DNA of 64,000 bases. It comes from a virus. The translations under genes were made by a program, and so were the position numbers. Shown here piece after piece: positions 4,368 through 20,019 of the stretch; within the stretch, counting starts at the first letter, position 1, and every line of letters begins with the position of its first letter. The stretch is taken from positions 37,034-101,033 of IMG/VR virus record IMGVR_UViG_3300005573_000069. The stretch is one strand, 5' to 3'. The notes under the pieces are model-generated. The model was not told the origin of the DNA. It did no database searches and was given only the letters and a program-made list of their open reading frames with translations.

Positions 4368-4389
4368 GTTAATCTCCCTTTCAATTTTT

Positions 4390-4421
4390 TATGTACAGGC
4401 CGGTTTTTCACCCGGTCGGCC
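4390..4421 (-). promoter_or_regulatory. hairpin-TACATA junction element (before DNA ligase)
   Basis: Imperfect GGCC..GGCC stem, then TACATAA, then GGGAG RBS on minus strand. Confidence 0.7.
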
Positions 4422-4520
4422 AGCCGGAAATAAGTTATGTCTTTTCTATTGTCCAAACGATCTTAGATGTTTCAAGTAACCAGGCACTTGTTTATCGAGT
4501 TCCAACAACATCTCCTCTAG

Positions 4521-4937
4521 TCATCCATCAGCAATATCCGCAGCAAACTCCATACACCCATCAACGTCCATGCCAATCTGAGTCCAAATATATTCACCAT
4601 CGTCTTCACTTTTATCTACAAAACTTAAACCGTAGTTTATTGAATATCCGTGTTTTCTACCATCCGGAAGTGCTATGCAATCTATTCCCGGAAACTCATA
4701 GCCTGGTAATATATCCTTTATCTCCTTGACAAGCTGATTAGTAGCTGCAAATAGCCTATGATATGTGTCGCGTGATCCTTTCGTGATCTGTTCTTTCTTT
4801 GAAAGTACAGGATAACCTTCGTGTTCAAGGTACTTATAGGCACATTTCAGCAAGGGACGTATCTTAGCACTCCCCTACTTTAATACCGCAATTGCTGCCA
4901 TTATCTCTTTTGTTGTATATTCTTTCATTTTAACCAT
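4521..4937 (-). pseudogene. hypothetical gene with in-frame TAG at 4875-4877
   Basis: RBS and ATG at 4937/4928 are in frame with track ORF 4521..4853, separated by one amber codon. Confidence 0.55.
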
Positions 4938-4980
4938 CCCTTCCTTTCCCCTGCCATCCTTCTTTGTCGGCTACGGGCTA

Positions 4981-5009
4981 TATGTATGAGCCAAGGCTAA
5001 AGCCCTGGC
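4981..5009 (-). promoter_or_regulatory. hairpin-TACATA junction element
   Basis: GCCAGGGC-TTTA-GCCTTGGC stem, then CATACATA. Confidence 0.65.
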
Positions 5010-5016
5010 AACCGGG

Positions 5017-5775
5017 TTATATATGCCGGGTAGTAATCTTTGGGATGCCAAGACCCAAGGCAATAGCCTCATGCGGTTCCACTTCGCGGGGTCTTCCAGC
5101 CTCGCCCAACCGCATGAGGATTGAACCTCTGCGTTTGACCCTCCATTGTCGCCAAACAGCAGCGGAGGGATCGCCAGTAACCAGAGAAATGTCTCCATTT
5201 CCCTGGAGATCTACATGAACAGCTTGACAATTTTTAACAGAGTAAATGTCTTGACGTGCCACCAAAACAAACATTCCCGGAGCTGGAACCAACCGGTATA
5301 TGTCTATCCCGGCAGCAGAGCCTGCTTCCTCAAAAGTATAATCTAGCCAAACATGGCCAAAATACGACAATTCTATACCTGGTTTACTGACAGATGAAGG
5401 CCCCACAAGAGCCAACCCCCATCTGCCATTTTGCGATACTTCTCGGAAGAGAGTTATTGTTTCCTCCTTTACCGCCGCTTTTGTTGGCAACGGCACAACT
5501 GTTACTTTGTAGGTGACAGGCTCAGCTGCGATCCTCCGAAGAGTCTCCAAATCGAGTTCTTTTCCCCGGAGCTCGGCACTAAGATTGAGAGGGATTTCTG
5601 TAACACTAGCAGCTAGTGCCGCCAATGAAAGTGGAAGTATACCGATAACATGTTTCCCGCGCACATCCTGCGGGGTGGCGTGCGGAATGACACGCACGCC
5701 TTCTTCGATTAGCCCACGCTCCTGAAGGAGCGCGACCAAAGCCGGGTGACGGGTTACGACAATGGTATTTTCCAT
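5017..5775 (-). CDS. Csx16/Crn1-like (TIGR02620-type) domain fused to unknown C-terminal domain
   Basis: N-terminal VVTRHPAL...PHAT...VIGILPLSLAA...LRGKELDLE pattern matches Csx16 (Cas_VVA1548). Confidence 0.65.
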   Translation of the reverse strand: MENTIVVTRHPALVALLQERGLIEEGVRVIPHATPQDVRGKHVIGILPLSLAALAASVTEIPLNLSAELRGKELDLETLRRIAAEPVTYKVTVVPLPTKAAVKEETITLFREVSQNGRWGLALVGPSSVSKPGIELSYFGHVWLDYTFEEAGSAAGIDIYRLVPAPGMFVLVARQDIYSVKNCQAVHVDLQGNGDISLVTGDPSAAVWRQWRVKRRGSILMRLGEAGRPREVEPHEAIALGLGIPKITTRHI

Positions 5776-5817
5776 TTGTATTCTCCTTTCTCGTACCTTT
5801 TACTTATAAGAGAATTA

Positions 5818-6312
5818 CTAATCAAAAACCACTCGTATTTCTGCCGGTCGTCCATTTCTATATCGCACATACACCGGATAAACACCGTCTCCATCACCCG
5901 TGCGACATACTGCCCATCTTGCAGATGAATTAGCATTCTGCGGATCGAACTTAAAAATATCCGCATTCGTTCTATCTACTTTTTCAAAAACATGGGACAG
6001 AGTACTGTTATCGTATACAATTGTTGTCATAACTCCTGTCTGGTGTAATTTCGCCTCCCATAAATTTACCTCTTCACCGGGCACCATAACTGACCAAGTT
6101 TCGGGAATCGTATCAGGAGTCAATGTAGCTGTATAACCTGCACTCTTAATAATTTTCAACGCTTGAGGAGCAGATGCCCCCCAAAAACGAATCATACCTG
6201 TAGGGGAACATTCCTTTTCTTTTTTCCAATCATTTTCAAAAAACCACGGATCTCCTAATACTAGTGTACCTGTTTCAATCGAAACGTGACCAATTAGCTC
6301 AAAGCCTTTCAT
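5818..6312 (-). CDS. hypothetical protein, DUF4241-like
   Basis: TGTLVLGDP...GDGDGVYPVY; start moved to 6312 after RBS. Confidence 0.6.
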   Translation of the reverse strand: MKGFELIGHVSIETGTLVLGDPWFFENDWKKEKECSPTGMIRFWGASAPQALKIIKSAGYTATLTPDTIPETWSVMVPGEEVNLWEAKLHQTGVMTTIVYDNSTLSHVFEKVDRTNADIFKFDPQNANSSARWAVCRTGDGDGVYPVYVRYRNGRPAEIRVVFD

Positions 6313-6341
6313 ATCTACCTCAATACTCCTTTTCATTTTAT

Positions 6342-6366
6342 TATGTACAGGCACCTATCAGGTGCC
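6342..6366 (-). promoter_or_regulatory. hairpin-TACATA junction element
   Basis: GGCACCT-GAT-AGGTGCC, then TGTACATAA and AAGGAG. Confidence 0.75.
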
Positions 6367-6705
6367 CAATCCCTCTTTTTTGACATCCAGCATCTGTTCT
6401 AGGATATTTGCCTTCTCATTAATTTCCGCCTTATTATTTCTTATATTTTCGCATATTACCTCCAGCAACCGGCTATTACAAACATCGTGTGCGAATTCCT
6501 TTGCAACCTGAGAATTAGCTCCTACCCACACATCGTCATAATTGCGGATACTACCTTGCGAACTGACGTAATATCCGTATGGCAATTGGCATCTTTCCGG
6601 CAGACAATCTGCCATCAGTTTGGAAAGACATCTTACATTTTCCCACAGACGTTCTTCCGCGATCTTATACTCTTCACAAACCTTCTTCAATTCCTCCAAC
6701 ATCAT
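6358..6705 (-). CDS. hypothetical protein
   Basis: Start likely 6705 (MMLEEL) after AAGGTGGAG. Confidence 0.65.
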   Translation of the reverse strand: MMLEELKKVCEEYKIAEERLWENVRCLSKLMADCLPERCQLPYGYYVSSQGSIRNYDDVWVGANSQVAKEFAHDVCNSRLLEVICENIRNNKAEINEKANILEQMLDVKKEGLGT

Positions 6706-6724
6706 AACTCCACCTTTCTCTAAA

Positions 6725-18730: not shown

Positions 18731-18739
18731 TCCTTATTT

Positions 18740-18764
18740 TATGTATTGGCGGCTTAAAGCCGCC
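18740..18764 (-). promoter_or_regulatory. hairpin-TACATA junction element
   Basis: GGCGGCT-TTA-AGCCGCC, then AATACATAA. Confidence 0.8.
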
Positions 18765-18765
18765 T

Positions 18766-19095
18766 TTATACTTTCGCAAAAGCTTTACAACCAACTATAG
18801 CGCCCTTATCATCCCTAACGGTATCGTCAGGGATGATTAAATCATCCCGATCTTTGGCCGCTTGTGCGACCAAAGAAGAAACGATATACATAGTATCAGC
18901 TTTTGGTTGGGGAAGGTTTTCAACTTCCCCAAAGATAGTTTTGTTAATTGCAATATCACGGCCATTTACTTTAATAATATTAACTGTTTGGCGCGTTGTC
19001 TTACATCTAGCGACAATGCCACTAGATGGAAAGACAACTTTCTCTTCGCCTAGAACCAAGACCACATCATGCGGGGTTAAATTAATGATTTCCAT
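18766..19095 (-). CDS. conserved NLTPH-motif protein (possible Crn4-like ring nuclease)
   Basis: IINLTPH...FPSSG.VAR...NLP.P...MYIVS.LVA...DL..P...VRD..G.IVGC. Confidence 0.55.
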   Translation of the reverse strand: MEIINLTPHDVVLVLGEEKVVFPSSGIVARCKTTRQTVNIIKVNGRDIAINKTIFGEVENLPQPKADTMYIVSSLVAQAAKDRDDLIIPDDTVRDDKGAIVGCKAFAKV

Positions 19096-19115
19096 ATTAA
19101 CTCCTCCTTATTTTT

Positions 19116-19141
19116 TATGTATGGGCCGCCGAAAGGCGGCC
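19116..19141 (-). promoter_or_regulatory. hairpin-TACATA junction element
   Basis: GGCCGCC-TTTC-GGCGGCC, then CATACATAA. Confidence 0.8.
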
Positions 19142-19155
19142 ATAATGGGGAATAG

Positions 19156-19479
19156 CTATTCGCCTACCCATTCCCCATTCTCCTGCATCTCTTCCGCGAT
19201 AGCGCGGAGGATTTCACAACTTGAAACATGATCCACATCTATCACCTCCTGGACGGCATGCTGTTTCCATGCCGTAGTAAGTGAAATTTCTACCGGCTGT
19301 TTTGGGTAGTTAGCAGTTGCATTCAACAGTAATGCAACTGCAAGTTCTGTCGGTATGATAACCTCGCGGTTACCATACCGGATAAAGATTTTGCCACCTT
19401 CCATTTCGGTAATGCTAGTGTTAGCATTACCGATGGGGCGGAAACCGCCGAGATCAGGATCGATTTTCGGATGCAGCAT
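19156..19479 (-). CDS. hypothetical protein
   Basis: Start 19479 (MLHPKID) after AAGGAG. Confidence 0.65.
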   Translation of the reverse strand: MLHPKIDPDLGGFRPIGNANTSITEMEGGKIFIRYGNREVIIPTELAVALLLNATANYPKQPVEISLTTAWKQHAVQEVIDVDHVSSCEILRAIAEEMQENGEWVGE

Positions 19480-19499
19480 GATCACCACTCCTTTAATTT

Positions 19500-19525
19500 T
19501 ATGTATTGGTGGCTTAAAGCCACCA
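19500..19525 (-). promoter_or_regulatory. hairpin-TACATA junction element
   Basis: TGGTGGCT-TTA-AGCCACCA, then ATACATAA. Confidence 0.8.
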
Positions 19526-19942
19526 TTAAACACGGCCCCGCCGCCATCCGGGGCACGGCCACCAGTTTATGAAATGGCTGGTGGCTGTTCTTACAGCTTT
19601 CAGGCCGCGTTTTCCGCGCCCGGTCCAATAAAACATGAACCGGGCGCTCTGATTACATTGGCGATAATTGATTTTTGTTTTCTTACTTCTCTTTTCCGCT
19701 ATAATAGCGGAAAAGAGAATGGTTAATGCAGTTAGTTCGTCCAGCTTTTCCACGTATTCATCAGTTGCTTGGCCATGCAAGCAACTGTAACGAACTGTAG
19801 GAAACGTATCTTTGTCTTTGTTGTAGTCTGCTTCTAGACGAAGCAAACCTACTTGTTCGCCATCCTCGTCCAGGAATACACCTTGAATTACAGAAAACCT
19901 CTTGCCGCCGTCACAAATACTTTCCACTAGACATTTTTTCAT
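19526..19942 (-). CDS. hypothetical protein
   Basis: Track ORF with AAAGGA RBS. Confidence 0.6.
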   Translation of the reverse strand: MKKCLVESICDGGKRFSVIQGVFLDEDGEQVGLLRLEADYNKDKDTFPTVRYSCLHGQATDEYVEKLDELTALTILFSAIIAEKRSKKTKINYRQCNQSARFMFYWTGRGKRGLKAVRTATSHFINWWPCPGWRRGRV

Positions 19943-19959
19943 CTTAGCACGTCCTTTCT

Positions 19960-20019
19960 GCCGCCTTTTTCCCGGCGGCTGGAGTTATGTATGTATGGGG
20001 AATACGTGAATATTCCCCA
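19960..20019 (-). promoter_or_regulatory. hairpin-TACATA(x2)-hairpin junction element, first of the array
   Basis: TGGGGAATA-TTCACG-TATTCCCCA / TACATACATAA / GCCGCC..GGCGGC. Confidence 0.75.

Follow-up and report, generated by a model that had tools for sequence, protein, structure and literature searches.

Hairpin-UACAUA elements at early gene junctions of a distant SPbeta-like phage: possible MazF-directed RNA processing modules

The DNA analysed here is a window of 64,000 nucleotides, bases 37034-101033 of the 109,955-bp IMG/VR virus record IMGVR_UViG_3300005573_000069, which carries direct terminal repeats. Its subject is a short element, a GC-rich stem-loop followed by the hexamer UACAUA, that recurs at 15 gene junctions of the minus strand (17 TACATA hexamers between window positions 4390 and 19995, all on the coding strand and reading TATGTA on the plus strand). 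The minus strand at genome 2.7-57 kb holds the replication and early-function genes, which include those for two DNA methylases, a beta-clamp, ribonucleotide reductase (RNR), RecJ, a Mom-like protein, a PNK/HD protein, an Rnl1-type RNA ligase, an ATP-dependent DNA ligase, GmrSD and DUF932; the plus strand carries the structural genes. The large terminase shares 51% identity with its counterpart in Lysinibacillus phage LC76P1 and 43% with YonF of SPbeta/phi3T, and the ribosome-binding sites (RBSs) are of the AAGGAGG type; by these marks the virus is classed as a distant SPbeta-like phage of a Bacillota host. Two scans of genome contigs with the phage terminase and RNR returned no host match, and a megablast search of the region against 50,697 phage records returned no match.

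Every hexamer sits between a stop codon and the RBS and ATG of the following gene, and four of them fall within open reading frames (ORFs) only if an upstream GTG or TTG start is used instead of the RBS-ATG. The parts of the module are consistently ordered as stop codon, 0-14 nt, GC-rich stem-loop (stem 7-9 bp, loop 3-6 nt), 0-3 nt and UACAUA. At 10 ‘simple’ loci the hexamer is followed by 4-20 nt, mostly A-rich, and then by a strong Shine-Dalgarno (SD) sequence, and at five ‘complex’ loci a second hairpin stands between the hexamer and the SD. The base immediately before UACAUA is A in 10 loci, G in four and C in one, and never U. An initial annotation made from the letters alone had proposed at least 14 hairpin-UACAU(AA)-RBS junctions; all the TATGTA sites that it listed are present, and a 15th, at 16658-16663, had been missed.

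The elements are numbered here in the direction of transcription, and all lie on the minus strand. Element 1 (20019-19960, complex) consists of a hairpin at 20019-19996 with a 9-bp stem, an overlapping UACAUACAUA at 19995-19986 and a second hairpin at 19979-19960, followed by the SD and an ATG at 19942. Element 2 (19525-19500, simple) has an 8-bp hairpin with a UUA loop at 19525-19507, a single A, UACAUA at 19505-19500, an SD 6 nt further on and an ATG at 19479. In element 3 (19141-19116, simple) the hairpin at 19141-19124 pairs GGCCGCC with GGCGGCC and is followed by CA, UACAUA at 19121-19116 and an ATG at 19095. Element 4 (18764-18740, simple) has its hairpin at 18764-18748, then AA, UACAUA at 18745-18740 and an ATG at 18721. 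Element 5 (18448-18390, complex) has a 9-bp hairpin at 18448-18427, then C, UACAUA at 18425-18420, a weaker second hairpin, the SD and a start near 18395. Elements 6 and 7 are again simple: the former (17925-17899) comprises a hairpin at 17925-17906, A, UACAUA at 17904-17899 and an ATG at 17878, and the latter (17293-17264) a 9-bp hairpin at 17293-17272, UA, UACAUA at 17269-17264 and an ATG at 17241. The long hairpin of element 8 (16700-16658) is interrupted and is followed by UAA, UACAUA at 16663-16658 and an SD 20 nt downstream.

The remaining elements are more widely spaced. Element 9 (13153-13124) has a weaker hairpin, then G, UACAUA at 13129-13124 and an ATG at 13097. Element 10 (11691-11639, complex) has a hairpin at 11691-11672, UACAUA at 11671-11666, a second hairpin (GCCACC/GGUGGC) that is compensatory relative to that of element 1, an SD and an ATG at 11622. 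In element 11 (11383-11342, complex) the hairpin at 11383-11363 is followed by UACAUA at 11362-11357, a downstream hairpin, an SD and an ATG near 11302. Element 12 (10874-10849) combines a weak hairpin with an overlapping UACAUACAUA at 10858-10849 and an ATG at 10825. Element 13 (6367-6342, simple) holds the stop codon of the upstream gene in the loop of its hairpin (6367-6349), followed by G, UACAUA at 6347-6342 and an ATG at 6312. Element 14 (5009-4981) has a hairpin with one G·U pair at 5009-4990, UCA, UACAUA at 4986-4981 and a weak second structure, and element 15 (4421-4390) has a hairpin of -10.3 kcal/mol, UG, UACAUA at 4395-4390 and an ATG at 4367 that opens the gene of the ATP-dependent DNA ligase.

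Folding predictions support the anatomy. The minimum free energy (MFE) of the 34 nt upstream of the hexamer averages -13.1 kcal/mol, and 13 of the 15 loci lie at or below -10 kcal/mol, the weakest hairpins being those at 10858 (-7.5 kcal/mol) and 13129 (-9.6 kcal/mol). The corresponding control values are -2.6 kcal/mol for sense UACAU[C/G/U], -2.2 kcal/mol for antisense TACATA and -2.8 kcal/mol for the leaders of other early genes, and only 0-1 of 33-47 control sites reach -10 kcal/mol. The hexamer itself has a mean predicted unpaired probability of 0.71, compared with 0.47 in controls. The stem-loop just before the motif, ending 0-3 nt upstream of it, and the RBS after it are as first described, and so are the second hairpins, which stand out at 19995, 11671 and 11362 and are less marked at 18425 and 4986. 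Two comparisons between elements also hold: the stems at 18745 and 19505 differ by a compensatory change from C-G to U-A, and those at 17904 and 19121 are identical with the loop inverted. The MFE of the junction hairpins alone, sense versus antisense, is not decisive.

The initial annotation had further stated that no U-tract accompanies the hairpins on either strand. This is correct for the coding strand, on which no junction hairpin has a trailing U-tract; on the plus strand there is a lone exception, a weak terminator-like call at 18748-18764. Intrinsic terminators were accordingly rejected as an identity for the element, as the tails lack a U-tract and read R-UACAUA-A-rich. RNase III sites were also rejected, the junction stems of 7-9 bp with 3-6 nt loops being too short.

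Over the whole window TACATA is not enriched (51 seen versus 44.9 expected), and the non-random part is its placement. On the 54-kb early sense strand all 17 copies of TACATA are junction copies and real coding sequences (CDSs) hold none, in keeping with the junction-bound motif first described. Shuffling of synonymous codons (n=200) gives an expectation of 11.4±3.1 copies in the early CDSs, with a minimum of 5. When the junctions are masked, none of the 2,445 hexamers ranked is as strongly depleted on the early sense strand as TACATA (0 vs 18.7, P=7e-9; the ranking took in words with an expectation of 8 or more), and on the antisense strand TACATA ranks 1772nd with 33 copies. A 36.5-kb contig of a relative, whose ligase is 92% identical, has no sense copies and 28 antisense copies. 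Because a single non-palindromic hexamer is lost from one strand only, the depletion points to selection at the mRNA level. This purge, together with the hairpins found throughout the ORFs of a 16-kb region (below), had escaped the initial annotation. The words TACATT, TACATC and TACATG occur on the early sense strand at least as often as expected, which matches the requirement of MazF for A at position 6. In the late genes there are 8 copies of TACATA versus 11.4 expected, a depletion that is not significant, as expected if MazF matters only early.

Some other words are also rare in the early region (genome 2700-57030). Apart from the homopolymers AAAAAA/TTTTTT, the next most depleted words include TGAACT/AGTTCA and three palindromes, ATCGAT, TTCGAA and GGATCC. 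All are low on both strands, which looks like restriction-site avoidance.

The hexamer has a known reader in Bacillota. End-mapping in vivo shows that EndoA/MazF of Bacillus subtilis cuts only U/ACAUA and leaves UACAU followed by any other base uncut (PMC11780869). The MazF enzymes of Listeria and Staphylococcus aureus have the same 6-nt specificity, and MazF occurs in ~80% of Bacillota species, whose 16S rRNA avoids UACAUA (bioRxiv 10.64898/2026.08.06.743204); Symbiobacterium MazF prefers the same site (PMC10893535). All 15 loci carry the exact TACATA on the coding strand, including the sixth A, and so present the strict in vivo site of MazF/EndoA. Phages of the SPbeta group are known to manipulate MazEF (PMC10769878; bioRxiv 10.1101/2023.04.27.537455): in this family AimX and YosL inhibit MazF, and YopM and SroA/SroB bind MazE and thereby activate MazF. 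MazF activity steers the choice between lysis and lysogeny, driving lysogeny in phi3T, and the phages have been said to ‘sense’ MazF.

A different factor might read the hairpin-UACAUA unit. It could be encoded by the phage, as an endoribonuclease or translational regulator resembling T4 RegB/RegA, or be a host RNase, for example RNase Y, whose cuts fall in AU-rich single-stranded RNA next to structures. The signs of sense-strand selection at the RNA level leave the identity of the enzyme unspecified, candidates exist among the many unannotated small array proteins (ORFans) and a DUF4258 toxin-like protein, and the site lies in an AU-rich single-stranded stretch beside a hairpin. The idea is nevertheless judged distinctly unlikely, since on this view agreement with the MazF site at all six positions would be accidental (~1 in 4096), the RNase Y consensus is only weak, and an early phage nuclease should also purge the late genes, which keep their 8 copies.

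The transcriptional frame of the elements was read from the sequence. A sigmaA-type promoter (TTGACA-17-TAAGAT) lies on the minus strand at 14163-14135, with further sigmaA promoters at 9466-9437 and near 15230. The first array operon is closed by a canonical intrinsic terminator on the minus strand at 15979-15958, whose hairpin and U-tract contrast with the junction hairpins, and a second true terminator lies at 15880-15862. Since sigmaA promoters and a true terminator frame the operons, the elements lie within polycistrons made by the host RNA polymerase (RNAP). Directly upstream of the first element and first array operon no promoter was recognised.

That gap is one of the points in favour of reading TACATA as a promoter element of the -10 kind, served by a phage sigma factor or RNAP that has escaped recognition, with the hairpin insulating the upstream gene and each small gene forming its own transcription unit. 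Transcripts from the complex elements would on this view carry a hairpin at the 5' end; moreover, a start ~7 nt past the hexamer would hit the foot of the second hairpin in complex elements. This proposal is very improbable. No RNAP-sized (YonO-size) ORF and no sigma-like gene were found in the phage genome, no -35 box or extended -10 accompanies any element, the leaders would measure only ~5-15 nt, canonical sigmaA promoters already serve the region, and the purge of the bare hexamer from one strand, with 33 copies left on the other, would have no explanation. The -10 of a sporulation sigma factor (CATACA-T) was rejected as a related candidate because any -35 would fall inside the variable stems.

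All 15 elements lie within a domain of the minus strand (4000-20100) that is predicted to yield a hyper-structured early mRNA, with ~40 hairpins having stems of 9-15 bp, most of them inside small ORFs, which hold up to four hairpins per gene and stems of up to 15 bp. Perfect Watson-Crick hairpins with stems of at least 9 bp number 29 genome-wide, and 22 of these lie at genome 45-60 kb; the 16-kb region contains 20, compared with 0.47 expected and a maximum of 3 in simulations. The density of long hairpins is 1.24 per kb, versus 0.13 per kb in 1.2 Mb of other phage loci. When G·U pairs are allowed, stems of at least 10 bp rise from 9 to 29 in the sense direction and from 9 to 14 in the antisense direction. 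The folding energy minus that of shuffled controls is -4.9 kcal/mol per 120 nt in this region, +0.1 in other early genes and -1.15 in late genes. In a relative at 80% identity the hairpins are kept, with compensatory changes in four pairs at 19380 and in two at 19028, and in the hairpin at 19433 all four loop bases differ and the 24 stem bases are unchanged. The compensatory changes, the sense bias of G·U pairing and the excess of folding energy together indicate that the hairpins of the region are selected structures in the mRNA. Such dense intragenic hairpins would be in line with an overall strategy for keeping RNA intact in a host rich in RNases.

Two IMG/VR contigs (L023 and L025) with homologs of the 109-aa protein encoded by the array gene at 18766-19095 are likewise rich in such structures, with 0.9-1.15 long hairpins per kb at ~50% GC, and in both the word GTACAG/TACAGG recurs in and around hairpins.

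Conservation was assessed at six independent orthologous junctions from relatives at ~80% nucleotide identity, namely L082/L120 and the L027-type contigs L027 (=L122), L121, L123 and L124. UACAUA is kept at five of the six while stems and loops change, so that the claim of structure maintained under changing stem sequence holds among relatives as well as among the elements of this phage. At the 19121 junction L082 has an unrelated stem and an unchanged hexamer, the ortholog of the 18745 junction gains a U·G wobble in its stem, and elsewhere the loop is altered. Element 9 (13129) is kept in L027 at 82-87% identity. The additional relatives found for the array proteins were mostly identical copies (L079, L080, L081 and L117).

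The genes beside the elements are exchanged between these relatives. The gene that follows the 17904 element encodes a 94-aa protein in this phage, in L082 is a homolog of the gene that this phage carries at 11302-11114, and in L120 is a third gene, so the same element does occur with different cargo, and at 16663 the upstream gene and hairpin are replaced in a relative. Three of the four synteny breaks observed fall at elements and one at an element-free junction, a small sample. By analogy with the stem-loop elements of T4-type phages known as PeSLs, the elements may thus behave as cassette boundaries, perhaps as a by-product of repeated sequence.

A primary role at the DNA level, as boundaries for PeSL- or integron-like shuffling of small early genes or as sites for phage DNA-binding proteins, can be built on the same data. 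Besides the breaks that fall exactly at elements (17904 and 16663), stems recur between elements, one ortholog has the reverse-complement hexamer TATGTA, a tyrosine recombinase that appears catalytically intact by its residues is encoded 2 kb away, and iterons containing ATACATA lie at 24.1-24.3 kb. The initial annotation had listed PeSL-type shuffling among its alternatives, and the breaks lend that option some support, but no -35 or -10 is found at the elements. A DNA-level role is improbable for several further reasons: the orientation is the same in all 15 elements, depletion of the hexamer is confined to one strand, RNA is indicated by the G·U asymmetry and by the compensatory hairpins within genes, inverted core sites and long imperfect hairpins of the attC kind are absent, one of the breaks lies at an element-free junction, and shuffling can follow simply from repeats. 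Integron attC sites were rejected as an identity for the element, given the short, perfect stems and the lack of an inverted motif copy upstream, and a link to IntI was rejected because the nearby recombinase is XerC/D-like and its match to IntI is partial only.

The element is rare beyond this group. The rest of the 110-kb genome contains no further copy, and in ~1.2 Mb of other phage DNA a comparable hairpin precedes 6 of ~680 TACATA hexamers. A pattern scan of IMG/VR for the element gave 14 chance matches, none with a hairpin, and no element is present at the loci where homologs of the DUF932 and 109-aa proteins are encoded. A search of window positions 1-26000 against Rfam 15 (E<=1) returned a tRNA and one chance miRNA match, with no family for the elements, and the literature searched contains no description of hairpin-UACAUA junction elements. 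The element is outside every described family.

The anatomy of the elements, their strand specificity, the depletion, the RNA-level structure and the conservation are shown by the sequence analysis. The explanation favoured here, held tentatively and at somewhat less than an even chance, is that the elements are RNA-level intercistronic processing modules of SPbeta-like phage early operons, aimed at a MazF-type RNase. With UACAUA purged from every early ORF, active MazF could not destroy the early messages. The site is retained at the junctions only, and there a MazF-type RNase would cut U^ACAUA. The upstream cistron would be left with a 3' hairpin and a tail of 1-4 nt that should resist 3' exonucleases, and the downstream cistron would begin a few nucleotides before a strong SD or a 5' hairpin, each of which is known to stabilise 5' ends in Bacillus. 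The polycistron would in this way be split into stable monocistronic mRNAs, and the early RNA dissected instead of destroyed. Bacillus mRNAs are shielded from PNPase-type exonucleases by 3' hairpins, and from RNase J1 by SD sequences or hairpins near the 5' end. Sequence statistics and literature give good support to the RNA-level reading and to the link with the MazF hexamer. The MazF-processed early transcript proposed in the initial annotation is partly supported, in that all of its testable sequence-level predictions were borne out; from sequence we infer MazF as the enzyme, the cleavage itself, the stability of the products and the benefit, be it processing, sensing or decoy.

Several points weigh against the processing proposal. 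The presence of MazF in the host is a prior only (~80% of Bacillota species), and no homolog of the YosL-type MazF inhibitor is detectable in the phage, AimX not having been searched for. The element is absent from SPbeta, LC76P1 and ~70 other phage loci, and SPbeta does not avoid the hexamer. At the orthologous 16663 junction L121 carries another hairpin, and behind it UAUGUA in place of UACAUA. The end of the hairpin lies 0-3 nt from the scissile bond and might hinder binding of MazF, and cleavage beside the SD need not be neutral and could do harm or work as an off-switch. In B. subtilis, UACAUA in a 5' untranslated region (5' UTR) lowers reporter expression under active MazF (bioRxiv 10.64898/2026.08.06.743204).

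The reporter result makes a regulatory role a serious alternative, in which the junction UACAUA would be a MazF-dependent off-switch or sensor, at which cleavage detaches the SD-proximal RNA and so silences downstream early genes (in stationary-phase hosts, or as a bias to lysogeny), or else a bait for MazF. The lysogeny of phi3T driven by MazF and the reported ‘sensing’ are in line with it, and the motif, depletion and strand evidence applies to it equally. It is still considered unlikely. An off-switch has no need for the purge of every ORF, nor for a 3'-protective hairpin at each site; as for bait, MazF is a turnover enzyme for which 15 sites per transcript would be poor bait, and there is no tandem pseudo-antitoxin repeat of the ToxI kind.

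Under the processing proposal, the intercistronic processing sites of T7 and SP82 would be the closest functional parallel, the single-strand site of a toxin RNase taking the place of the RNase III stem. Dunn and Studier reportedly described RNase III processing sites between the early genes of coliphage T7, and Panganiban and Whiteley in 1983 are said to have found Bs-RNase III sites in the early mRNA of Bacillus phage SP82/SPO1. As in those phages, structured intercistronic RNA signals lie within an early polycistron transcribed by the host polymerase, and a host endoribonuclease is proposed to make monocistronic mRNAs that end in a stabilising hairpin. The difference is that T7 and SP82 use a double-stranded stem of about two helical turns that contains the cut, whereas the stems here have 7-9 bp, the conserved part is a single-stranded hexamer 3' of the stem, and the cut would presumably be made in single-stranded RNA by the RNase of a toxin-antitoxin system.

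Compared with known targets of Bacillota MazF/EndoA, the elements share the exact hexamer, the mRNA strand and the predicted single-stranded context, and avoidance of the site where cleavage hurts is seen here in early ORFs as it is in the rRNA of MazF-encoding species. Known MazF targets, however, are scattered, mostly intragenic and lowered in expression by cleavage, whereas the sites here are found at junctions only, behind hairpins. SPbeta/phi3T belong to the same phage group by structural genes and are phages in which MazF is known to matter, and SPbeta transcripts have been reported to be enriched in UACAU. Unlike the phage studied here, SPbeta has 195 TACATA hexamers, only 3 of which follow a hairpin. 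Also unlike SPbeta/phi3T, the present phage has no detectable YosL homolog and no AbrB-type MazE domain (AimX was not searched for), and no phage-encoded PemK/MazF domain was found.

Other systems share parts of the arrangement. T4-type PeSLs (PMC2839356; PMC4122927) likewise place a stem-loop and a short conserved motif beside small ORFan early genes of a plastic region, and they coincide with the breaks of gene replacement between close relatives, as may also hold here, given three of the four breaks observed. PeSLs, however, contain a sigma70 early promoter, whereas the elements here all lack a -35/-10 and their conserved motif would be an RNase site on RNA. The leaderless mRNAs attributed to Escherichia coli MazF, which cuts at ACA just upstream of AUG (contested, PMC5111409), share the idea that MazF makes special translatable mRNAs, but they form a host regulon with a 3-nt site, no hairpin partner and no purge of ORFs. 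Plastid intercistronic expression elements (PMC2230500) are short RNA elements that lead to stable, translatable monocistronic mRNAs, as is proposed here, and differ in kingdom, in their PPR-type protection proteins and in sequence.

MazEF is core to most Bacillota and has recently been recast as a precise 6-nt mRNA regulator and a decision switch of arbitrium phages. This genome offers a clean test case, as one hexamer is gone from a 54-kb early message and has been re-placed at 15 junctions that look engineered. A broader scenario, possible but doubtful, is that a toxin RNase nearly universal in Bacillota has been made into an mRNA-processing enzyme or physiological sensor of the phage, acting on an ‘RNase-proof’ immediate-early RNA of 16 kb with purged ORFs and densely packed, conserved hairpins, in which MazF-gated junction cassettes would decide whether and in what way each early gene is expressed and also serve as portable boundaries for gene swapping. 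If cleavage were confirmed, the phage would be exploiting a defence toxin for RNA processing, which goes beyond merely blocking the toxin. Synthetic operons in Gram-positive bacteria would in that case also gain a compact natural ‘cistron separator’, and the extraordinary degree of structure in the early regions of some phages would have an explanation.

Several neighbouring features were recorded. Three array genes on the minus strand have a defence or toxin flavour and encode a DUF4258 (toxin-like) protein (16253-16540), a protein with a GmrSD N-terminal domain (8288-9412) and a Cas_VVA1548-domain protein (5017-5775). Opposite the first element and the leader of the array operon, gene finders call a 157-aa ORF on the plus strand (window 19987-20460), whose Cys/Arg/Tyr-rich translation looks non-coding. 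The same strand as the array carries an RNA-repair-type module composed of a P-loop kinase (AAA_33) and HD-domain protein (genome 36026-36979, just left of the window), an Rnl1-type RNA ligase (window 1-1041), an enzyme of the CCA-adding/poly(A) polymerase family (genome 33309-34499) and a tRNA-Leu(UAA) (window 2808-2894). The substrates of such enzymes are 5'-OH and 2',3'-cyclic phosphate ends, which MazF and anticodon nucleases leave behind.

The XerC/D-like tyrosine recombinase is encoded on the minus strand at window 21945-22814, with its own promoter at 22878-22850 and a terminator at 21948-21928, and its catalytic R, K, HxxR, H and Y are apparently intact, unlike those of the inactive SPbeta MrpR. 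Downstream of this gene, at window 21300-21420, units of ACATATTAATAT are repeated and inverted, with 10-bp perfect palindromes at 21398-21375 and 21332-21305, and this part may be an attP or operator region. At window 24020-24430 an intergenic stretch very rich in AT contains iterons (TACTATGTATTA three times and TATATGTATCA twice) and many inverted repeats. Seven minus-strand copies of (A)TACATA occur there within 250 bp, between perfect sigmaA promoters at 23428-23456 and 24593-24621, and the stretch is probably an operator or origin array.

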